Below the pieces are notes generated by a model, which worked only from the letters and a program-made list of their open reading frames with translations, was not told the DNA's origin and ran no database searches. A program made the translations under genes and the position numbers. From an uncultured delta proteobacterium (GTDB lineage: Bacteria; Myxococcota_A; Polyangia; Fen-1088): DNA of 64,000 nucleotides. The DNA lies in assembly GCA_963767925.1 (NCBI GenBank), contig CAVYGB010000008.1, forward strand, positions 768,001-832,000, written 5' to 3'. This document shows positions 20,194 to 35,030 of this stretch, piece by piece (within the stretch, counting starts at the first letter, position 1; the number at the start of each line of letters is the position of its first letter).

Positions 20194-20725
20194 CCGCGGC
20201 GCCCCCGCGCCGCTGACCAGCTCCGCGCCGGGATCGTTCGCACGCGACGCCGAACCGCCCGTCTGGCCGTGATCGCCGACAGCGCCGAGGCGAGCGGGCT
20301 CATGGACCGCGCCCGCGTCGATCGGCGATCGATCCCGGCGGGATGGAACGAACATCAGCGCGGCGTATTGAAGCGCGCGGCAGCAACGGCAAACGCCCGC
20401 GCGCAGCTCCGTTTCTTGATTGGGTTCAGAGGGCGGCGTTTCTCAGCAAATGACGAGGGCCGCATCGTGGCAGGAGAATCTATCCAACGATGGGCCCCTG
20501 CGCCGCGCGCGTGACGGCTGTGTTTCGGCCGGTCGCCGGAAGGTTGAGGCGTTGGAGTGTCTCGAATGGTGACGCGAGCGGGCGCCCTGCCATCCGTACT
20601 GCGACATGGGATCACGAGTGGTATTGGCACGTCCAAAGACTAGAAAAACGTCCCTCGAAGCGAATAGCATTGCCCCTCGACGGGACTGCAGGTGGGACGC
20701 AGAGGTCCCGCGTAAAGGAGAGACT

Positions 20726-22540
20726 ATGACTCTTGTTCGCCGGCCAACCGTGGTGGTTCTTTCGCTCGCACTGGCGAGCACCCTCGCTTGCTCCAACGAA
20801 GGCGGCGGCACGCCGCCAGGACCTCCCGGCACCGGCGGCTCCGGTGGATCGGGCGGTCGACCAGGCGTGGCCGGCTCCGGTGGCAGCGGTGGCGCAGGTG
20901 GTGGCGCTCCCGCCTCCGTCGACGCCCGCTCCCCCGACACCAGCTCCCCCTCCGTGGACGCGGCCCCGGCCGCGGTGCCGGCGCCCGAGGACTTCGCCTG
21001 GCTCGCCAAGCCGTTGCCGGTGCTCTGGATTACCCTCAACGGCGCGGCCATCGTCGCTCCGGGCCAGCCGAAGGCGATGCGCACGCTCGGCAGCGTCAAG
21101 GTGATCCAGGATCACGACGGCTCGGCCTTGACCAGCGTCGATGGCAAGACCATCGCGCTCGATGCCCCGATCCTGATCGAGGGCCGCGGCTCGAGCTCCT
21201 TCACCGCCGGCGCCAAGTTCATGGGCGCGCAGGGCTACAACATGGAGTTCCACGACGGCAACCGCGACGGCGTTGGCCGTCAGCTCTTCGGCTTGCCGCA
21301 GAACGCGGACTGGGCGCTCGTCACTTGCGTCTCCGACAAGACTTGCATGCGGAACGCTTTGACCTACGCCATAGGCCAGGAGCTGGCCGGCCCCATGGGC
21401 CGCTGGGCGCCGCGCTTCCGCTGGGCCGAGGTGTACATCGACGGCGTCTACAACGGCGTCTACACGGTGGCGGAGAAGCCGAAGGACGACAAGTTCCGGG
21501 TCAACCTCCCCAACGTCGCCGACAACGCCGCCCCCAACGAGACGCCTTACCTCATCAACGCCGACGGAGACTGCCGGGCGGCGTACGCCTTCGATCCCCT
21601 CGATCCGAAGAGCGAGTTCCTCGACGAGCGGGGCCGGATGTCAGCGCCGCCGGCCGGCATGATGGGCTGTGCGACCACCCGCGTGCCGGGCAATCGCCGC
21701 TGGAAGGTCCGTTCTCCCAACCCCGACACCAAGCTGACCGACGCCCAGCGGATGTACCTCCCGCAGGCCTTCGATCAGATGACGAAGGCGCTCGACGCCG
21801 GCACCGGTGACTGGAAGGCGAAGGTCGATCTCCCGAGCTTCCTCGATTACTTCGTGATCTCGGAGTTCACCAACAACGTCGATGCCTTCTTCAAGAGCTG
21901 GTACATGTACAAGCTGCCCGACAGCATGGGCGGCAAGTGGTACATGGGCCCGATCTGGGACTACGACCTGGCCTATGGCAACGCGAACTACTACTTCCGC
22001 CAGTGCGCCACCAACACGCAGATCGGGCCGCTCGCGAAGGAAACCCCGATGGCCAGCGCCAAGGACGACGCGGCTCCGCCCTGGGCGCTCGCGCCGCTCA
22101 AGGACACCGCGGTGGCCAACGACCTGCGCTGCCGCTGGAACACGCTGCGCACCGACGGGCCGCTCGCGCTGGCCAAGCTGGAGGCCCGCATCGACGCCTT
22201 CGTCGCCCACCTGCGCACCGCCAAGGCCCGGGACACAGCCAAGTGGATGAACTATCCGAAGTACGTCTGGCCGAACAACCACGTCGCGATGAGCTGGGAC
22301 GACGACGTCCGCTACCTCAAGTTCTGGATCCGGACCCGACTGGCCTGGGTTGATCGCACCCTGGCCGGCACCTGCGCGGCCACCCCCAATCCTCCGATGG
22401 TCCCGCAGATGCAGCCGCCGCCGAGCGCACCGGTCAGCCGGGCCATCGAGATGTGGGGCGGCGAGTCGCTCGATCGCTTCAGCGACTATGTCCCGATCCT
22501 CGGCAACACGCCCGCCGAGTGGTCCTGCCCCGGTCGCTGA
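20726..22540 (+). CDS. CotH kinase family lipoprotein
   Basis: AAGGAG RBS; lipobox LAC; Gly-rich linker; GRGSSS, DKTCMRN, YNGVY..EK, NVDAF, GPIWDYDLAYGN. Confidence 0.9.
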   Translation: MTLVRRPTVVVLSLALASTLACSNEGGGTPPGPPGTGGSGGSGGRPGVAGSGGSGGAGGGAPASVDARSPDTSSPSVDAAPAAVPAPEDFAWLAKPLPVLWITLNGAAIVAPGQPKAMRTLGSVKVIQDHDGSALTSVDGKTIALDAPILIEGRGSSSFTAGAKFMGAQGYNMEFHDGNRDGVGRQLFGLPQNADWALVTCVSDKTCMRNALTYAIGQELAGPMGRWAPRFRWAEVYIDGVYNGVYTVAEKPKDDKFRVNLPNVADNAAPNETPYLINADGDCRAAYAFDPLDPKSEFLDERGRMSAPPAGMMGCATTRVPGNRRWKVRSPNPDTKLTDAQRMYLPQAFDQMTKALDAGTGDWKAKVDLPSFLDYFVISEFTNNVDAFFKSWYMYKLPDSMGGKWYMGPIWDYDLAYGNANYYFRQCATNTQIGPLAKETPMASAKDDAAPPWALAPLKDTAVANDLRCRWNTLRTDGPLALAKLEARIDAFVAHLRTAKARDTAKWMNYPKYVWPNNHVAMSWDDDVRYLKFWIRTRLAWVDRTLAGTCAATPNPPMVPQMQPPPSAPVSRAIEMWGGESLDRFSDYVPILGNTPAEWSCPGR

Positions 22541-22564
22541 CAGGTCCCCCCGGTCCAGCGGCTC

Positions 22565-22580
22565 GGGCACGCGCGTTGCC
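22565..22580 (+). promoter_or_regulatory. Candidate sigma54 -24/-12 promoter upstream of the TonB-dependent receptor
   Basis: GGGCACGCGCGTTGCC fits GG-N10-GC and is close to TGGCAC-N5-TTGC; an AT-rich tract follows. Confidence 0.3.
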
Positions 22581-22829
22581 GGAGCCGTTGCACAGCCGTC
22601 ACATTTACTTCCTCTGAGTTTAATGTTCATAGAATCGAGCGGAATTAAAACGACCGGTGGGGGCACGGTGGGTGCCAATGTCCCCCGCAGGGATCGTGGG
22701 AAGTTTGGATTCAATCGATTTCATGGCGCCAATCCAGGGCTCTCGCCTAGCGTCCCGAAAAGGGATATTCCTTGTGCGGGGAGCTTAGGCCCCTAGGGGT
22801 TCATCTCGTGGACCGAAAGGACTAAGGCG

Positions 22830-25601
22830 ATGTCGCGGTTAGCCAGTCGAGTATTTGTTCTAGGTGCGGCTGCCCTCATGCTGTTGCCCTCGGTGGCCTG
22901 GGCCCAGGGCGGCGCGAGCGGAAGCTTGGTCGGTATGGTCGTCGATCAGACGGGCCAGCCGATGAGCGGGGTGAAGATCAGCGCCCGCTCGGACACGCAG
23001 ATCGGCGGGGCCAAGGTGACGTACACCAACGACACCGGTGAGTTCCGGGTCGTCGGGCTCATCCCCGGCACCTTCGAGGTGACGGCCACCGTGCCGAAGA
23101 TGAGGACGGTCCATCAGAAGGGGGTCAACGTCGGCGTCAATGCGGCGGCCGAGGTGACCATGATGATGGAGGTCGAGACGGCGACCGAAGAGGTCAAGGT
23201 CATCGAGCGCGCCCCGGTGGTCAGCACCAAGAGCGCGGTGGTCAAGGAGGTCTTCGACTCCGAGTTCGTCGACCAGATCCCCTCCGACTTCAAGGCGGGG
23301 GCGGAGAGCGTGGTGGCCACCAGCGTGCCCGGCTCGGTCGTCGTCGGTTTCCGTGGCGCCCGCATCCGCGGCGGCGCCCAGAACCAGACCGGCTTCCTGG
23401 TCGAAGGTTTCCACATGAACGGCCAGCGCAGCACCCTCAAGGGCATGGCCGCGCTCGAGGTCCAGGGAGCGGGCTACGGCGCCGAATACGCGCCTTACGC
23501 CGGCGGGGTCGTCAACATGGTGACCAAGTCCGGATCGAACCGGCACGAGATCGACCTCAACGGCTACATCGAGGACAACCGGCTGAGCTTCTTCCTCGAC
23601 AACCAGGACTCGCGCGAGCGCTCCTACTTCTACGTCTTCAACCCCAACGTCTCGGGGCCCATCATCAAGGACAAGGTCTGGTACTTCGTCAACTTCGAGG
23701 CCCGGCCCGAGCTTGTCGTCGATCCCCCGGATCCCCTCGGCCTGGCCCCCAAGACGCCCGACTACCGCTACTTCAGCTTGCGCGGATCGGGGAAGATCAC
23801 CTGGCAGATCAGCCCCCGCAACAAGCTGGTCAACTTCACCAACTTCAACCTGCGGAGCAACTACAACAACGTCCGCGGCTACAACACCTACGCCGAGCCC
23901 GAGGCGCAGACCCGCCAGGACGACCGGGACATCTTCACCGGCTTCATCTGGGAGTCGCTCCTCACCGACAACACCTTCCTCAAGAGCCAGGTCGGCGTGC
24001 AGCGCTTCCAGCAGCAGGTGGGCCCGCAGCTCTGCCAGGCCGACCCCGATGCCTGTCTGCACACCCCCTCGGTGATCCAGACCTTCCCCCGGACGGTCGT
24101 CTCGGGCAACGCCCGGACCCACACCCAGACGATCACCCAGAAGCTCCAGTTCATCAACACGCTGCAGTTCTTTCCGGCCAGCCGGCGCTTCGGGGAGCAC
24201 GACATCCGGCTGAAGAACGACTACTACATCGAGGGCGCCGAGCGCGCCGCCTCGACCCCGGGGAACATGGAGACCTTCCTGGCGGGCCCCACGCCCGACC
24301 GACAGGTCGAATATTTCGCCAATGATCCGCGACTGGAGGACGCCCGCGCCGGCTGGTTCATCCGGAGCAGCGGGAGCTGGCGGAACGTGCTCTCGCTGTC
24401 GGACTCGATGCGGATCGCCCGCTACCTGACGCTCACCCCCGGTGTCGCCCTCACCACCGCCCGGGCCTTCAACAGCCTCGGCGAAACGCCCCTCAGCGTG
24501 AACGCCTTCACGCCGCATTTCGCGGCGGCCTGGGACGCCACCCAGGACGGTAGGACCGTGCTTCGAGGCAGTTTCAACCACTACGTCGACGTCGATGCGG
24601 CAGGAATCGCCAACTTCACCGTTGGGGACCGTGTCTCGCGCACGTGTTTGTGGGATGCACCTTCCCAGACCTACAGTGGGAGCTGCACCTTTGCCGGAGG
24701 CTTGTCTGGCCGGACTATTGGCTTGCCCTGCGGGGCGACGGGTTTCGACGCCAGCGGGCAGCCCTGTAGACAGAAGTTAAAGGCTCCCCGGACCTGGGAG
24801 TACACCGTTGGTGCGGAGCGAGAGGTGGTTGCCGGCGTCGCTCTTTCGGCGGACGTGATCTACCGGAAGTACACCAACCAGTACGAGATCTTCGAGACCA
24901 ACCGGATCTGGAACCGTTCGGGTTCTTCTCTCGAACCTAGCGGCTCTTTCCGGAACGGCCGCAGCCAGGTCATCCAGGACATCCAGACCCCCGAGAGCGC
25001 GCAGCGTTCTTACCTCGGCAATACCATCGGCATTCACAAGCGGGAGGGTGCCCTCAAGGTCAACGTCGGCTACACGTTGAGTTTCCTCAAGGGCACCGTC
25101 CTCGATGGCATGGGGAATCCCTACGGCGACATCACGGGGCGGGACTTGTTCCTCAACGGATACCTTGTCGACGACTCGCGCCACAATATCCGGATGACCA
25201 GCACGTACCAGTGGAGTCGTTGGCTGAGCACGGGCGTGCTCTACGACTACAAGTCGGGCCGCCCATACCAGCGCCTCTACCGGAACACCGTTACCGGGGG
25301 GTTCGAGGACTACCGCGCCCGGGTGGGCATCAACCCCGGGAACAACCTCAATGACCCTCTCGACGACCGCGAGTTGCGCCTCCCCGACATTCAGGAACTG
25401 GGCGTGCAGTTCCGGGCCAACCTGGCTTCGATCCTCGGTGTTCAACTGGAAACCTACGCCGACGTCATGAACGTGCTCGGGTTGCGTACCACCCTTGCAG
25501 TGGTCCAGCAGGACGGTCCAACTTGGGGGACCCCGGTGGGCGGTCCGGAGGGGCGGATGAAGCCGTTCCGCCTCCGCCTCGGCGCCCGCTTCAAGTGGTA
25601 G
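22830..25601 (+). CDS. TonB-dependent receptor, Oar-like, with N-terminal carboxypeptidase-regulatory-like domain
   Basis: AAAGGA RBS; signal peptide; GMVVDQTG..GEFR; AEY..GGVVNMVTKSGSN plug; SGPIIKDKVWYF; ends RLGARFKW. Confidence 0.9.
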   Translation: MSRLASRVFVLGAAALMLLPSVAWAQGGASGSLVGMVVDQTGQPMSGVKISARSDTQIGGAKVTYTNDTGEFRVVGLIPGTFEVTATVPKMRTVHQKGVNVGVNAAAEVTMMMEVETATEEVKVIERAPVVSTKSAVVKEVFDSEFVDQIPSDFKAGAESVVATSVPGSVVVGFRGARIRGGAQNQTGFLVEGFHMNGQRSTLKGMAALEVQGAGYGAEYAPYAGGVVNMVTKSGSNRHEIDLNGYIEDNRLSFFLDNQDSRERSYFYVFNPNVSGPIIKDKVWYFVNFEARPELVVDPPDPLGLAPKTPDYRYFSLRGSGKITWQISPRNKLVNFTNFNLRSNYNNVRGYNTYAEPEAQTRQDDRDIFTGFIWESLLTDNTFLKSQVGVQRFQQQVGPQLCQADPDACLHTPSVIQTFPRTVVSGNARTHTQTITQKLQFINTLQFFPASRRFGEHDIRLKNDYYIEGAERAASTPGNMETFLAGPTPDRQVEYFANDPRLEDARAGWFIRSSGSWRNVLSLSDSMRIARYLTLTPGVALTTARAFNSLGETPLSVNAFTPHFAAAWDATQDGRTVLRGSFNHYVDVDAAGIANFTVGDRVSRTCLWDAPSQTYSGSCTFAGGLSGRTIGLPCGATGFDASGQPCRQKLKAPRTWEYTVGAEREVVAGVALSADVIYRKYTNQYEIFETNRIWNRSGSSLEPSGSFRNGRSQVIQDIQTPESAQRSYLGNTIGIHKREGALKVNVGYTLSFLKGTVLDGMGNPYGDITGRDLFLNGYLVDDSRHNIRMTSTYQWSRWLSTGVLYDYKSGRPYQRLYRNTVTGGFEDYRARVGINPGNNLNDPLDDRELRLPDIQELGVQFRANLASILGVQLETYADVMNVLGLRTTLAVVQQDGPTWGTPVGGPEGRMKPFRLRLGARFKW

Positions 25602-26382
25602 CGGCCGACCGCGCGTGAAGGAAAATTCCCGTCGCGGTGGCGACGTTGAGGGAATCGGCCTTCGCGCGCGCCATCGGGATGGTCACGAGCTCCTGACAGA
25701 CGGCCCTGGCCTCGGCACCGAGGCCGGGGCCTTCTGCGCCGAAGAGCAGGGCCACCCGCTCGGGCCAGGAAAACCGGCCGAGGGGCGTGGCCCCGTCGGC
25801 CAGGACGGCGCCGACCGGGGTGAGTCCCCCGGACCGGCATAACCGGTCGAGGTCCCCCGGCCAGTCCTGGCAGCGCAGGATGGGCAGGAAGAAGACGGTC
25901 CCCATCGAGACCCGGATCGCCTTCCGATAGAAGGGATCCGCCGTGCGGGGGGACAGGATCACGGCGTCGGCGTCGAAGGCGGCGGCGTTCCGGATGGCCG
26001 CCCCGACGTTGTCGACGTCCACCAGGTCTTCCAGGACCACCACGGTGCGGGCTCCGGGCGGGAGGGTCGCCGGCGCGGGGCGCTGTCCCAGCGCCAGGCA
26101 GCCGCGGTGCACATGGAACCCGGCCACGGCGTCGAGCAGGGCCTGGGGGCCCAGGTAGACCGGCACCCGCGGTCGCAGGCGATCCTGCAGGCTCTGGAGA
26201 TGGCCCGCGGTGAGCAGGACCGATCGTACGGCGAGCGGGCTCTCGAGGAGCTTGCGCACCACCGGCTCGCTCTCGGCGATGAAGGTGTCCCCTGCCGCCC
26301 GGAGCGCCCGGTCCTTGAGGTTGCGGTAGGCGTCGAGCCGCGGGTCGGCGGCGTCGCTGACCGCGTGCAGGTCGAGGGTCAC
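25591..26382 (-). CDS. TrmH/SpoU family RNA methyltransferase
   Basis: NVGAAIRNAAAF, DPFYRKAIRVSMG, LFGAEGPGL, IPM..DSLNVATA; GTG start overlaps the upstream stop. Confidence 0.9.
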   Translation of the reverse strand: MTLDLHAVSDAADPRLDAYRNLKDRALRAAGDTFIAESEPVVRKLLESPLAVRSVLLTAGHLQSLQDRLRPRVPVYLGPQALLDAVAGFHVHRGCLALGQRPAPATLPPGARTVVVLEDLVDVDNVGAAIRNAAAFDADAVILSPRTADPFYRKAIRVSMGTVFFLPILRCQDWPGDLDRLCRSGGLTPVGAVLADGATPLGRFSWPERVALLFGAEGPGLGAEARAVCQELVTIPMARAKADSLNVATATGIFLHARSAATT

Positions 26383-28472
26383 GCCCGCCAGCGCGCCAGG
26401 CCTTCCATGAGGGCCGCGAACTCCGGAAAGTCGAGGCTCTGGTCGGCGTCGGACTGGGCCTTTTCCGGCTCGGGATGCACCTCGATGAGCAACCCGTGGG
26501 CGCCGCAGGCGCGCGCCGCCCAGGCCATCGGGGCGACGTAGGCCCGGCGGCCGGTGCCCTGGCTGGGATCGACGAGCACCGGCAAGTGGGTCCGCTCGCG
26601 CACCACCACCACCGCCGACAGATCCAGGGTGTTCGGGGTGGCGCTCTCGAAGGTGCGGATGCCCCGCTCGCACAGGATGACCTGCCCGTTGCCGTGAGAC
26701 AGCAGGTATTCCGCGGCCGCCAGCCACTCGTCGATGGTCGCCGACAGCCCCCGCTTCAGCAGCACGGGGCGGTTGATCTTGGCGACCTCGCCCAGCAGGG
26801 GGAAGTTCTGCATGTTGCGCGCGCCGATCTGGAGGATGTCGGCGCGGTCGGCCACCAGGCGCACGTCCTCGGGCGACATCACCTCGGTCACGACCGGCAT
26901 GCCCACGGAGCGGCCCGCCGCGGCCAGCAGGTCGAGCCCGGGCAGGCCGAGCCCGGCAAAGCCCTCGGGGCTGGTCCGCGAGCGGAACACGCCCCCCCGC
27001 AGCACGTGGGCCCCGCGATCCCGCACGAAGCGGGCGGTCGATCGGATCTGGTCCTCGGACTCCACCGAGGCCGGGCCCGCCATGACGACGAAACCGTTGC
27101 CGCCGATCAGGAGGTTGCCGACCCGGACCAGGGTGTCCTCGCTGCGCGAGCCCCGTCCGACGAGGCGCTGGCGGGTCGGCCGGGGCCGGCTAGCGGGAAT
27201 CTCCGCGGCGACCGGCGGGGGAGGGGGCATCGCGACGGCGCGCTCGGGCGCGAGGGCAGGACCGCCGGGCGCGGGCGACCGGATGCCGGGCAGGTGGGCC
27301 TCGACCGGTGTGGCCTTGGCCGGGTAGCAGCCCAGGACCTTGAGGAACAGCGCCCGGGCCCGCAGCTCGTCGAGCGCAGCGGCGACCCGGGGGTCGGCGG
27401 TGTTCCCCTCGAAGTCGGTGAAGAACATGTATTCCCAGGGCCGGTCGGGGTGGGGCCGCGATTCCAGCTTGGTGAGGCTCAGGCCGTGGTTACCGAGCGT
27501 CTCCACGCAGCGCAGGAGGGCGCCGTGCTCGTGGCGGGTGGAGAGGATCAGGCTGGTCTTGCAGGGGATGCGGGCGTCGAACGTCACCGGGGCCCGGGCC
27601 AGCGCGACATAGCGGTGCAGGATCTCCTCGTGGTTGCCGATCCCCCGCCGCACGACCGTGAGGCCGTGGGCCTCGGCCGCCTCGGGTGAGCCGACCGCGA
27701 GCTGGGTGGGGTCCTGGGCCTCGGCCACCAGGCGCATCGCCTCGGCGGTGTCCACCACCGGCACCGCCCGGGCGTTGGGCAGGGCATCGAGAAAGACCGA
27801 GCACTGCTCGAGGGCCAGCGGGTGAGAGAGGACCCGCTGCACCGCCGACAGCGGCACGTCGGACAGGCCACACAGGCAGAGGTCGACCTTGATGGTCTCC
27901 TCCCCCACGATGTGCAGGTCCTTCTCCCGCAACACGTCGTAGACCTGGTTGATCGATCCGGCGGCGGTGCTCTCGATGTTGAGGAAGGCCAGGTGCACCG
28001 CGGCCGCCTCCAGCGCCCCCACCACCTCCTTGATCGAGGGCTGCCCCACGAACTCGGCCGGCTCGTCGAGCTCGCTGGTGAACTTCTGGGCGGCCAGGTG
28101 GTTGAAGGTGAAGGGCGTTCCGACGTAGGCCACCCGCAGCAGCCCCGCCTCCGGACCGAGTCCGGTGAGGGTGCTGGCCTGCCGGCTGACCGAGTGGGCG
28201 ATGAGCTCGGAGAAGATCTTCCGCGCCAGCGGCACCGAGATGCCCGCCGCCCGGGCCAGCGACTCGACCCGGGTCAGGATCTCGTGCTCGCGGCGCGAGT
28301 CCCGGATGCCCGAGGTGCGTCCCTGCTTCTCGGCGATGATGAGCCCGATGGTCTCCATCCGGGAGGCGATCAGGCGGACCAGCTCCTCGTCGATGCCGTC
28401 GAGCTTCTGGCGCAGCTCGCGCAGCGCGGGGGTTGACGCGGGGGGTGGGGGGCGACCTTGGTTCTCGCTCAT
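26379..28472 (-). CDS. Chorismate mutase / prephenate dehydratase-like + ACT / DAHP synthase (type I-beta)-like fusion
   Basis: Aro[19 protein letters not shown]-like [64 protein letters not shown] at 28472 overlaps the pheA stop. Confidence 0.9.
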
Positions 28473-29368
28473 GACGATCGGTCCTGTCCGGGCATCTCTG
28501 CCCGCGGATAGGTGCCCAGGACGCGCACGCTCTCGGAGGAGACCGTCAGCTTCTCGAGGGCCCGGGCGATGGCCGGGTCGGCCGGATCGCCCATGAAGTC
28601 GAGGTAGAAGGAATACTCCCAGGGGCGGCCCGGGATGGGGCGCGATTCGATCTTGGTGAGGTTCACGCCCCGCTCGGCGAAGGCGGCCAGCGCCTGGTGC
28701 AGCCCCCCCGGCTGATGGGCGGTGCGAAACACGATGCTGGTCTTTGGCTCCCCCGCGGCCGGAGCGGCGCTGCGGCCGCCGGCGGTCCGATCCGGGCGGG
28801 TGATCACAACGAAACGGGTGAAGTTCTGGGGGTCGCTCTCGACGCCGGCCACCAGGATCTGGGCCTGCCAGGCCCGGGCCGCGTTTTCGCTGGCGATGGC
28901 CGCCTCGTCCCGGCGGCCCGCCTCCACCACGAGCTTCACGCTGCCCGCGGTGTCGTAGGCCGCGACAGCCTCCAGGGCGGAGTGCTCGCGCAGAAACCGT
29001 TCGCACTGGGCCAGGGCCACCGGGTGCGAGTAGACCCGGCGGATGTCGCCGAGGGCCGCGCCCGGCAGGCCGATGAGGTTGTGCACGACCCGGATCACCA
29101 CCTCGCCCGTCATGGTGACGTCGTGCTCGAGCAGCAGGTCGTAGCTCTTGATGACCGAGCCGGCCAGCGTGTTCTCGATGGGCACCACGCCGGCGTCGGC
29201 TGCTCCCGCCACCACGGCCTCGAAGAGCTGCTCGAAGTCCCGGCAGGGCACCGCCCGGACGGCGGGGCCGAAATATTGACGGGCAGCTTCCTCGGAGAAG
29301 GCGCCACGTTCGCCCTGGAAAGCCGCCACCGTCTGCTTGCTGGGGGGCGTGCTTCCCGGGGCGTTCAT
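28469..29368 (-). CDS. pheA: Prephenate dehydratase (PDT + ACT)
   Basis: FQGERGAFSE, PIENTLAGSV, SHPVALAQC, NFTRF, NLTKIESRP. Confidence 0.93.
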   Translation of the reverse strand: MNAPGSTPPSKQTVAAFQGERGAFSEEAARQYFGPAVRAVPCRDFEQLFEAVVAGAADAGVVPIENTLAGSVIKSYDLLLEHDVTMTGEVVIRVVHNLIGLPGAALGDIRRVYSHPVALAQCERFLREHSALEAVAAYDTAGSVKLVVEAGRRDEAAIASENAARAWQAQILVAGVESDPQNFTRFVVITRPDRTAGGRSAAPAAGEPKTSIVFRTAHQPGGLHQALAAFAERGVNLTKIESRPIPGRPWEYSFYLDFMGDPADPAIARALEKLTVSSESVRVLGTYPRAEMPGQDRSS

Positions 29369-29373
29369 CGTCG

Positions 29374-30063
29374 CTACTGTCCTGGAGAACGCATCTTATA
29401 CCCCACGTGCCGCACAGTCTCGATGACATCGCCGCCCGTTCCCAGCTTGGCGCGTAGCCGCCGCACGTGGATGTCCACTGTGCGGGTGTTGCCGGTGTAC
29501 CGGTAGCCCCAGACCCGCGACAGGAGCTGCTCGCGGGTGAACACGCGCCCGGCGCCTGCGGCCAGGAACTTCAGGAGCTGGAACTCCTGACGCGGCAGCT
29601 TGAGGGCCCGGCCCCGGTGGGTGACCTCGACGGCCACGGTGTCGATGACGAGGTCGCCGAGCTTGATCCGGCCGGCCGCCCGGAAAGACGACAGCCGCCA
29701 GTCGAGCTGCCGGACCCGGGCATAGAGCTCGGGGCCCACGATGGGGGAGAGGATGAAGTCGTCGACGCCTAGCTCGGGGTCGAGGTTGGGCAGACGCGAC
29801 ACCTCCACGCAGAGGAGCACGGGGATGTCGGTCAGCGAGCTCACCTGACGCACCCGCTTGACGGCCGCCCGGCCGACCTCGAGGTAACCGCCGGCGTCGA
29901 TCACCACCACCGACGGGCGGGGATGTTCGATGTCGTCGGGCAGATCGTCGAGGTCGTATCCGACCGCGGTCACCGTGCACCCCAGCTCGTGCAGGCATGC
30001 GGCAGGCGTATCGGGCTCGTTGACCGCAGAGCCAGGTTTCGATGTGACAACTAGAGCGCGCAT
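29374..30063 (-). CDS. Atypical OmpR-family response regulator, GlnR-like
   Basis: Winged-helix EFQLLKFL..GRVFTREQLLSRVWGY..TRTVDIHVRRLRAKLG; degenerate receiver domain. Confidence 0.85.
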   Translation of the reverse strand: MRALVVTSKPGSAVNEPDTPAACLHELGCTVTAVGYDLDDLPDDIEHPRPSVVVIDAGGYLEVGRAAVKRVRQVSSLTDIPVLLCVEVSRLPNLDPELGVDDFILSPIVGPELYARVRQLDWRLSSFRAAGRIKLGDLVIDTVAVEVTHRGRALKLPRQEFQLLKFLAAGAGRVFTREQLLSRVWGYRYTGNTRTVDIHVRRLRAKLGTGGDVIETVRHVGYKMRSPGQ

Positions 30064-30155
30064 TACTTAGAAACATACGATGTGGGTGCGAATAGCAAGC
30101 CGGGTTTCACGGCGAATACCTGCAATGAGCACCGTCGCATGTATCCGGAGGCCTC

Positions 30156-30173
30156 TGAAACAATCAGGTTTCA
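30156..30173. promoter_or_regulatory. Palindromic operator candidate TGAAAC-N6-GTTTCA
   Basis: Perfect 6-bp inverted repeat in the AT-rich region between the regulator and gltB. Confidence 0.45.
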
Positions 30174-30394
30174 ATGTTTCCGAATCATTTCGGCTCCAAA
30201 ACCACGGGCCAGGGTGGGCAAAGGTGATTTACAGGCGTCGAAAGTGGGTGCTAGGTTTTCGAATTCAGTAAGGACCTGCTGGCTGATCTGGGGGGCGTCA
30301 CTGCATGACCTGCGCGGGTTTCCGCTCGGGCCGCACCCAGCGCGGAACGCCGCGCGGAAAGGCTGCGGCAGGCGCAGGGAGGCCGAAAGCAGTC

Positions 30395-35030
<4,636 letters not shown>

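Follow-up and report, generated by a model that had tools for sequence, protein, structure and literature searches.

What remains of a multi-enzyme fusion when the catalytic residues of two of its domains have been replaced and its reading frame has stayed open? The question is raised by a gene in a stretch of 64,000 nt from an uncultured delta proteobacterium (assembly GCA_963767925.1, contig CAVYGB010000008.1, positions 768,001 to 832,000; this whole stretch is referred to hereafter as the window, and its G+C content is ~70%). The gene encodes a 697-aa protein in which an AroQ-type (type II) chorismate mutase (CM) domain is followed by a prephenate dehydratase (PDT)-like domain, an ACT domain, a linker and a barrel resembling type I-beta 3-deoxy-7-phosphoheptulonate (DAHP) synthase (DAHPS, also written DAH7PS), and it directly follows pheA, a gene for a stand-alone PDT (Table 1). 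A first-pass annotation, made from the letters of the window alone, had proposed that the PDT-like and DAHPS-like domains are dead and that the protein is a pseudoenzyme scaffold or allosteric sensor. The analysis described here leads to an answer that we consider probable, although well short of certain: the fusion would be a CM-only enzyme, the rest of which is a non-catalytic scaffold for sensing Phe and for oligomerisation, and it would be paired with a separate PDT.

Residue changes in the PDT-like and DAHPS-like domains

The reading frame of the fusion was indeed free of frameshifts and internal stops, and its domains were recognized by Pfam as CM_2 (residues 20-98, 54.9 bits, cut-off 27), PDT (PF00800; 114-294, 147.6 bits, cut-off 25.2), ACT (308-371, 25.2 bits, slightly below the 27-bit cut-off) and DAHP_synth_1 (PF00793; 454-688, 236.1 bits). 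The first-pass annotation had listed substitutions at functional motifs of the PDT-like domain and of the barrel and had assigned roles to the residues concerned. The substitutions were all found again in the codons or in alignments to proteins of known structure, and the roles agreed with the literature (PMC10845154 for the PDT motifs, PMC6362186 for the metal-binding Cys and His and the substrate-binding KPRT of DAHPS; papers given by PMC number are cited here and below from excerpts of their text).

Alignment of the PDT-like domain with the C. tepidum PDT (2QMX) placed IEST opposite IENS (NIEST where P(I/V)EN(S/T) is expected) and ILHRY opposite NITRF, and it added two changes to the earlier list, namely YSE to FNH and EHC to DLC. 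The HRY residues (286-288, codons 27609-27617) take the place of the TRF triad, which is critical for PDT substrate binding and catalysis (PMC10845154). When set against 192 canonical PDTs, fusion residues N124, N165, S168, L198, I284, H286 and Y288 occupy positions that carry S, P, N, H, N, T and F, respectively. The PIEN position reads NIES in the fusion, and the canonical pocket residues there and at positions 124, 198 and 284 are 94-99% conserved in the 192 PDTs. These replacements suggest that the PDT-like domain no longer catalyses prephenate dehydration.

The barrel was aligned with the DAH7PS enzymes of T. maritima (1RZM) and A. pernix (1VS1). In both comparisons AGPCSVE is changed to AGPASVE, (Y/F)KPRTSP to FRSRTSP, ATRNTLD to ATPNTLD and DPSH to DPSQ, in line with the AGPASVES, FRSRTS, TPNTLD and DPSQG motifs that had been noted earlier. 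Type I-beta DAHPS enzymes hold their metal through Cys, His, Glu and Asp ligands, bind phosphoenolpyruvate (PEP) through the Lys of KPRT, the Arg of a GxR motif, the Lys of LKRG and a later Arg (RNTLD-type motif), and bind erythrose 4-phosphate (E4P) through the Arg and Thr of KPRT (PMC6362186). Among the metal ligands of the fusion barrel, A468 stands for the Cys and Q638 for the His, and E664 and D675 are retained; among the substrate-binding residues, R497-S498 stand for the Lys-Pro of KPRT and P613 for the Arg of RNTLD, and R492, R499, T500, R552 and K573 are retained. Judged by these residues, the DAHPS-like domain would no longer make DAHP.

As for the CM domain, R21, R38, K49, D58, R61, E62, S94 and Q98 align on identical residues of E. 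coli CM (1ECM), the equivalents being R11, R28, K39, D48, R51, E52, S84 and Q88, which we take to be its active-site residues. The earlier claim that the AroQ residues and the ESRP motif of the ACT domain are kept was upheld by the alignment and also by the clade of 28 orthologues described below, in all members of which the eight CM catalytic positions as well as ESRP (337-340), G317 and L319 are retained. We infer that the AroQ domain is active as a CM. ESRP and GALV are known as ligand-binding motifs (PMC10845154), and the Phe-binding motifs of the ACT domain appear intact, so that Phe binding itself can be predicted.

Conservation of the altered state among orthologues

A search of 5.8 billion proteins returned at least 119 full-length relatives of the fusion (62-87% identity, same four Pfam domains), which together with the window protein make up a set of 120. 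A tree was computed for 68 family members and outgroups (IQ-TREE in quick mode, LG+G4), and the clades were defined on it: 28 members including the window protein (the window clade), 88 in a sister clade, and 4 others. Both the family (SH-aLRT 99) and the window clade (99) were monophyletic; the group of 88 was supported at 91, and P0030 and P0057 came out as sister to the window clade (95). The family will be called Polyangia-like, a label that rests on the names of sister-clade proteins (metagenome-assembled genomes, MAGs, of 'Polyangia bacterium'). Conservation was measured at the protein level.

The Thr of TRF is present in 100% of the 192 canonical PDTs and in 0% of the window clade, where it is replaced by His in 27 members and by Asn in one. 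All 88 sister-clade proteins have Met at this position (M286, giving MRY for TRF), and within the family the Thr is retained in P0030, P0057 and P0105. N165 and S168, which stand for the Pro and Asn of PIEN, are found in 27 of the 28 window-clade members, and I284, N124 and L198 are fixed in most members. At the 37 PDT and ACT columns that are conserved to 93% or more in the canonical PDTs, the window clade departs at 11 and the sister clade at 7. The departures within the ACT domain are only partial and conservative (K305 to R, L323 to V/I, and P345).

Replacement residues that are nearly invariant within each clade could mean that the remodelled PDT-like pocket has acquired a new ligand or reaction. 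Their constancy is unlike the drift seen in the DAHPS pocket (see below), and a PDT-fold protein with another reported activity does exist (7AM0, with the entry title 'GqqA - a novel type of quorum quenching acylases'). However, dissimilar residues, His and Met, became fixed at the same position in the two clades, which argues against one shared new chemistry. Moreover, the gene context yields no candidate ligand or reaction, and the presence of an adjacent intact pheA is more simply explained by loss of PDT activity. A new function of the pocket is therefore, in our opinion, quite unlikely.

The barrel presents a different pattern from the PDT-like pocket. Among 54 DAHPS columns conserved to 95% or more in 73 canonical cluster representatives, the window clade keeps 39 and departs at 15 (C468, G494, K497, P498, R499, S501, P502, F505, Q548, R552, K573, R613, H638, E664 and Q678), every one of them within the metal and substrate motifs or next to these; the sister clade departs at one of the 54. 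The Cys is missing from 27 of the 28 window-clade proteins, and every one of the 28 carries between one and eight changes at ten DAHPS catalytic positions, at which any change occurs in a single one of the 88 sister-clade proteins. The replacements vary between sublineages of the window clade (A, G or S for the Cys; P, A or T for the Arg; RSRT, TP--, RTRE, RLRD or QPTG for KPRT), which points to relaxed rather than redirected selection. Within the clade the DAHPS-like domain has a mean pairwise identity of 77%, as compared with 74% for CM, 77% for PDT, 82% for ACT and 43% for the linker. Such a pattern has the signature of a DAHPS pocket that would have been released from selection several times in parallel, with the fold still being selected.

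A barrel that is still enzymatic, be it as a metal-independent or altered DAHPS or as a related aldolase, would fit with its 236-bit match to DAHP_synth_1 and its scores above the NCBIfam DAHPS cut-offs, and with the retention of E664, D675, R552, K573, R499 and T500. There is also the relative KDO8PS, for which the title of entry 2NXG describes an engineered path from a metallo to a non-metallo KDO8P synthase. Yet the catalytic positions drift among the orthologues and no new fixed set of residues emerges, the window protein lacks both the Lys and the Arg that bind PEP, and the loop around P613 is predicted with low confidence. We consider an active barrel very improbable.

Sequencing or assembly errors, or a pseudogene, could also produce substitutions in a single copy, and the reading frame of the neighbouring gltB gene has come apart into at least five pieces (see below). 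Against this, all 697 codons of the fusion are open, and several of the changes need two base substitutions (e.g. Cys to GCC, Thr to CAC, Lys to CGC; the codons are GCC for A468, CGC for R497, TCG for S498, CCG for P613 and CAG for Q638), which read errors do not explain. The same states are found in 27 further, independent full-length orthologues, a recurrence that takes the pattern beyond chance; in addition, the fold-defining columns are kept and the G+C content at third codon positions is uniform across the fusion domains (0.90-0.99). We give next to no credence to an artefact or to ongoing decay. The comparison of orthologues that the first-pass annotation had recommended thus supports an altered state that has been conserved over 28 orthologues, and it contradicts the lone decaying copy which that annotation had left as an alternative.

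The distribution of the altered and unaltered forms gives some indication of the order of events. Four-domain fusions with P(I/L/V)EN, TRF and all DAHPS catalytic residues were found at eight loci in other phyla, namely in an Actinomycetes-labelled MAG (L001), Melioribacter (L003), Ignavibacteriaceae (L004), Chthoniobacterales (L006), Acidimicrobiia (L007, L019 and L047) and Acidobacteriota (L008). The changes common to the whole Polyangia-like family are S124 to N/H, N284 to I/L and F288 to Y; P165N, N168S and the DAHPS decay are confined to the window clade. The ancestor was probably a trifunctional CM-PDT-ACT-DAHPS fusion, in which the PDT pocket would have been remodelled first, throughout the family, followed by the replacement of Thr with Met in one clade and with His in the other. 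DAHPS catalysis would then have been lost in the window clade, in parallel sublineages.

Several other observations were made on related loci. An Actinomycetota-labelled MAG has, at L002 (9767-12036), two overlapping frames, one for a P-protein with IEN, TRF and ESRP and one for a canonical DAHPS whose identity to the barrel of the window is 72%; they could be a four-domain fusion that has been frameshifted or else two unfused neighbours. In six of the 88 sister-clade proteins (P0035, P0038, P0041, P0043, P0045 and P0046), in which the DAHPS is canonical, the last CM pocket residue, equivalent to Gln88, is replaced by Glu; the CM domain may there be drifting to a regulatory role. When genome contigs were scanned by profile with the family alignment, no locus of the window family was present among the matches listed. 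The sole Polyangiaceae locus among them (L055, 829-2576) encodes a stand-alone FXD plus canonical type I-beta DAHPS that is 55% identical to the barrel of the window. Used as a query, this FXD-DAHPS gave at least 120 matches at 73-100% identity, and none of the matches listed was on a contig as long as that of the window (3,312,238 nt) or as the long contigs of the relatives; nor was any other DAHPS or CM gene found within the 64-kb window. The L055 DAHPS gene and the fusion gene of the window are both directly followed by a SpoU methylase gene. The two methylases are just 29% identical, which makes shared synteny doubtful.

A stand-alone PDT gene accompanies the altered fusions

The first-pass annotation had described the upstream pheA as overlapping the fusion gene and as retaining all of its motifs. 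Both points hold: the TGA stop of pheA sits within the ATG start of the fusion (ATGA), which implies coupled translation of the two genes, and the product has PIEN, TRF and ESRP (Pfam scores of 201.2 bits for PDT and 41.6 bits for ACT). Among 120 homologues of pheA, TRF is present in 119, and P(I/V/M)EN and ESRP in all.

Co-location of the two genes in relatives was inferred from identical sizes of the longest contig of each protein. Seventeen fusion/pheA pairs were found on contigs of exactly identical size, as compared with the ~0.45 pairs expected by chance (estimated from near-miss pairs); 11 of these involve the window clade and 6 involve sister-clade or other proteins. The genes for a 747-aa fusion and a 301-aa pheA product match at a contig size of 4,070 bp, which would place them at most ~900 bp apart. 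One of the 17, the pair P0008/P0318 (3,005 bp), is probably a chance match, since its sources differ and its identity is out of rank, which fits with the ~0.45 expected. Nine outgroup loci, in which TRF is retained by the fusion or by an adjacent P-protein, served as a control, and their flanks (up to 10 kb on either side) contained no further PDT gene. It would thus seem that a stand-alone pheA with TRF accompanies the fusions with altered PDT in both clades, and not the outgroup fusions that keep TRF.

Predicted structures and possible pairing with PheA

AlphaFold2 prediction of the fusion from a 60-sequence alignment gave a mean pLDDT of 80.4 and a pTM of 0.50. The individual domains were confident, the linker (387-434) had a pLDDT below 50, indicative of disorder, and the loop around P613 (605-615) was of low confidence; with a pTM of 0.50, the placement of the domains relative to each other is unreliable. 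Using Foldseek, the barrel was superimposed on P. furiosus DAH7PS (1ZCO and 4C1L) with a TM score of 0.93-0.94 and an rmsd of 1.5-1.8 over ~260 columns, and on 3NVT and 5J6F with an rmsd of 1.5-1.7. The PDT-ACT part was superimposed on 2QMX with a TM score of 0.88.

The first-pass annotation had also suggested, by way of example, that the fusion may bind the adjacent PheA or an active DAHPS so as to channel prephenate or relay Phe feedback. In a hetero-oligomer with PheA the PDT-like and ACT domains would pair with PheA through the usual PDT/ACT dimer interface and rebuild a P-protein in trans, sharing Phe sites and holding CM beside PDT, an arrangement that would complement the explanation that we favour. 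The ATGA overlap, the gene pairing kept in both clades, and the Phe-binding ACT motifs present in the fusion and PheA alike (motif role from PMC10845154) are all consistent with this. Furthermore, when residues 108-392 of the fusion were folded together with PheA, the predicted complex scored 0.46 and the best of three controls 0.00, with at least 73% of contacts agreeing between runs and a partner pLDDT of at least 81, which lends the model weak support. Of 157 solved complexes, 116 reached the mark set for this test, as did 2 of 215 mismatched pairs; at scores of 0.60 or less, it was only 18 of the 157 and both of the passing mismatches. However, a pair of paralogues can pass by likeness, and as PDT homodimers have been solved (2QMX, 2QMW and 6VH5, among others) the result may reflect likeness alone; the score does not weigh a hetero- against a homodimer, and gene adjacency is in itself weak evidence of binding. 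We regard the hetero-oligomer as possible but doubtful.

A probable split phenylalanine branch

How, then, might the locus work? According to the model of a CM-only enzyme on a sensing scaffold, the AroQ domain of the fusion would supply the CM step and the adjacent PheA the PDT step, giving a split phenylalanine branch. The ACT domain and the remodelled PDT-like domain would sense Phe or prephenate, and the DAHPS-like barrel would be the oligomeric and allosteric body by which the CM domains, as obligate dimers, are kept together. A barrel that supports CM in this way has precedents: the DAH7PS-CM of P. nigrescens has two domains that rely on each other for function, and its CM is activated by substrates of DAH7PS (PMC8408635), and the CM of M. 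tuberculosis needs to be in complex with DAH7PS for high activity (PMC7762937). Of the pseudoenzyme reading given in the first-pass annotation, the loss of near-universal residues in both domains stands and is now seen to be conserved, and the role as scaffold or sensor is plausible but conjectural.

A number of points weigh against this model. The inactivity of the PDT-like and DAHPS-like domains is deduced from residues, and the CM activity, the Phe sensing and the scaffold role are likewise predicted. The barrel keeps R492, R499, T500, R552, K573, E664 and D675, which could leave room for ligand binding or for a reduced or altered activity, and the basal clade members P0011 and P0013, which deviate at just one of the ten scored DAHPS positions, might still have active barrels. 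In the PDT pocket the replacements have become fixed (27 of 28 proteins have N165, S168 and H286, and 88 of 88 in the sister clade have M286), and this looks like selection for something; a His in place of the Thr might in principle still serve in acid catalysis. Finally, the co-location of fusion and pheA genes in the relatives was derived from contigs of equal size and not from their sequence.

Relation to known systems and a wider pattern

With the E. coli P-protein (PheA) the fusion has in common the CM-PDT-ACT order, the CM residues and ESRP. It differs in lacking the Thr of TRF and the Asn of PIEN, in having an extra barrel of 260 residues, and in being accompanied by a second gene for PDT. 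The CM-linked type I-beta DAH7PS enzymes (Geobacillus 5J6F, Listeria 3NVT/3TFC, P. nigrescens and P. gingivalis) also combine an AroQ CM and a barrel in one chain, and in P. nigrescens the two are mutually dependent and in allosteric communication (PMC8408635, PMC12202928). In these enzymes, however, the barrel forms the catalytic core, with a CM that is partly regulatory, whereas the barrel of the window fusion is predicted to be non-catalytic and a PDT-like/ACT module is inserted between CM and barrel. In M. tuberculosis, too, the high activity of an AroQ CM depends on a DAH7PS body (PMC7762937), but there the DAH7PS is of type II, is active and is a separate polypeptide. The canonical four-domain fusions (the eight loci listed above, and representatives such as P0122, P0125 and P0126) have the same domain order and 40-59% full-length identity to the window protein; they differ in having intact motifs and DAHPS residues and no extra pheA in their flanks, and they are presumably trifunctional.

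Closest in kind is a protein of Shewanella oneidensis, an AroQ-PheA with a C-terminal aroA(I-beta) 'pseudogene', to which the excerpted text of Song, Bonner, Wolinsky and Jensen (2005; PMC1173090) devotes a single sentence and an entry in an event table, giving neither an analysis nor a function. Like the window fusion, it is a P-protein (CM-PDT-ACT) with an apparently non-functional C-terminal type I-beta DAHPS domain. Going by its description, its PDT was taken as functional, whereas the PDT of the window fusion is altered and a separate pheA is present. Beyond this remark, no literature on a CM-PDT-ACT-DAHPS fusion or a pseudo-DAHPS was found in a search that covered subscription journals thinly and is for that reason weak evidence.

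To see how frequent such proteins are, 1.84 billion cluster representatives were scanned without a profile and the best 150 matches were taken; 50 of these were CM-PDT-ACT-DAHPS-like and at least 600 aa long. All ten DAHPS catalytic positions are canonical in 12 of the 50 and not in the other 38, so that degenerate DAHPS tails, to which a single literature sentence could be traced (PMC1173090, as excerpted), are present in most of these four-domain representatives. The Thr of TRF is kept in 45 of the 50 and the CM set in nearly all. Pfam DAHP_synth_1 was detected in 36 of the 38 degenerate tails, with 30-215 bits as against 234-274 bits in the 12 canonical ones, and was undetected in two. A dead barrel on a P-protein is thus already known, and is far commoner than the Shewanella remark implies; what is new is the altered PDT together with a compensating pheA.

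Some of these representatives are of interest in their own right. In the P0143 cluster, from cultured Agarivorans species (Gammaproteobacteria), a CM-PDT-ACT protein of 667 aa ends in a degenerate DAHPS tail, in which 5 of the 10 catalytic positions are kept. The database names of the protein are '3-deoxy-7-phosphoheptulonate synthase' or 'chorismate mutase'; the former is likely a mis-annotation, and the organism is a tractable one. Other fusion orders were also encountered (FXD-DAHPS-PDT-ACT, PDT-DAHPS-CM and FXD-DAHPS-prephenate dehydrogenase-ACT, among P0150, P0154, P0158, P0174, P0198, P0237, P0255 and P0262). P0198, of the FXD-DAHPS-PDT-ACT type, has Ala at the metal Cys as well as other changes, and DAHPS decay may therefore have taken place in this architecture too. 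P0229, a 345-aa stand-alone DAHPS, has KPST and a Gln at the metal His position, which indicates that partial alteration of the DAHPS active site occurs outside fusions as well.

The locus and its neighbouring genes

The features of the locus are collected in Table 1. Judged by position, the genes for the response regulator and the SpoU-family methylase may be in an operon with pheA and the fusion gene; a functional link would be hypothetical.

Table 1. Features of the pheA-fusion locus, in window coordinates
Feature	Coordinates	Strand	Evidence
SpoU-family RNA methylase, abuts fusion stop downstream	25591..26382	-	Pfam
Fusion gene, 697 aa, CM / PDT-like / ACT / linker / DAHPS-like	26379..28472	-	ORF open throughout, Pfam, alignments
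Type I-beta DAHPS-like barrel, fusion residues 437-697	26382..27164	-	Alignments to 1RZM/1VS1
Pro/Ala-rich linker, fusion residues 389-436	27165..27308	-	Predicted disorder, low identity in clade
ACT domain, fusion residues 305-388	27309..27560	-	Pfam, 2QMX alignment
PDT-like domain, fusion residues 113-295	27588..28136	-	Pfam, 2QMX alignment
AroQ chorismate mutase domain, fusion residues 16-102	28167..28427	-	Pfam, 1ECM alignment
pheA, stand-alone prephenate dehydratase + ACT, 299 aa, intact (PIEN, TRF, ESRP)	28469..29368	-	ORF, Pfam, motifs
OmpR-type response regulator (Trans_reg_C), 5 bp upstream of pheA	29374..30063	-	Pfam

On the opposite strand, gltB (glutamate synthase large subunit; 30082-34628, +) is split into at least five reading-frame pieces, with GATase_2 positions 1-61, 66-342 and 391-420 and parts of Glu_syn_central and Glu_synthase falling into separate open reading frames. 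Other long genes nearby are intact, and the split represents either gene decay or local indel errors of the assembly. On the other side of the locus (20606-25601, +) are genes for a CotH-domain protein (644 aa) and for a protein of 923 aa that resembles outer-membrane receptors and has a CarboxypepD_reg domain at its N-terminus, which appear unrelated to the fusion.

Implications for annotation and for the evolution of the family

The expectation of the first-pass annotation that automated pipelines would name the fusion as an ordinary enzyme proved correct. Its scores exceed the cut-offs of the NCBIfam DAHPS models TIGR01361 (349.5, cut-off 267.75) and NF006421 (389.9, cut-off 335), and pipelines would therefore call it a DAHP synthase; PRK10622 matches residues 16-387 with 232 bits, far under its cut-off of 577 bits. 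The relatives are in fact named 'chorismate mutase/prephenate dehydratase' or '3-deoxy-7-phosphoheptulonate synthase' by their sources. As a consequence of such names, metabolic reconstructions would credit these bacteria with first-step and PDT activities that they probably lack.

A broader interpretation is that dead barrels, and here the dead PDT as well, represent a recurrent pseudoenzyme control hub of aromatic amino-acid synthesis, in which the fusion would use its barrel and its PDT-like/ACT module to form a Phe-responsive metabolon with PheA and possibly a free DAHPS. We think this rather unlikely. If true, the chemistry of the fusion would be the CM step only, its dead pockets would read prephenate, Phe and perhaps PEP or E4P (by way of the Arg, Lys, Glu and Asp that are retained), and the 38 degenerate tails among the 50 representatives would be one widespread regulatory design and not many accidents.

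In either case, the family provides what looks like a natural series, leading from a probably trifunctional fusion through proteins with a remodelled PDT and a live DAHPS to proteins in which both would be dead and CM is left, and it is a clean example in which to follow the decay of multi-enzyme fusions to pseudoenzyme scaffolds. A conserved barrel without catalysis would also allow the structural or allosteric contribution of DAH7PS to CM to be separated from its chemistry, which is relevant to shikimate-pathway allostery and to pseudoenzymes.

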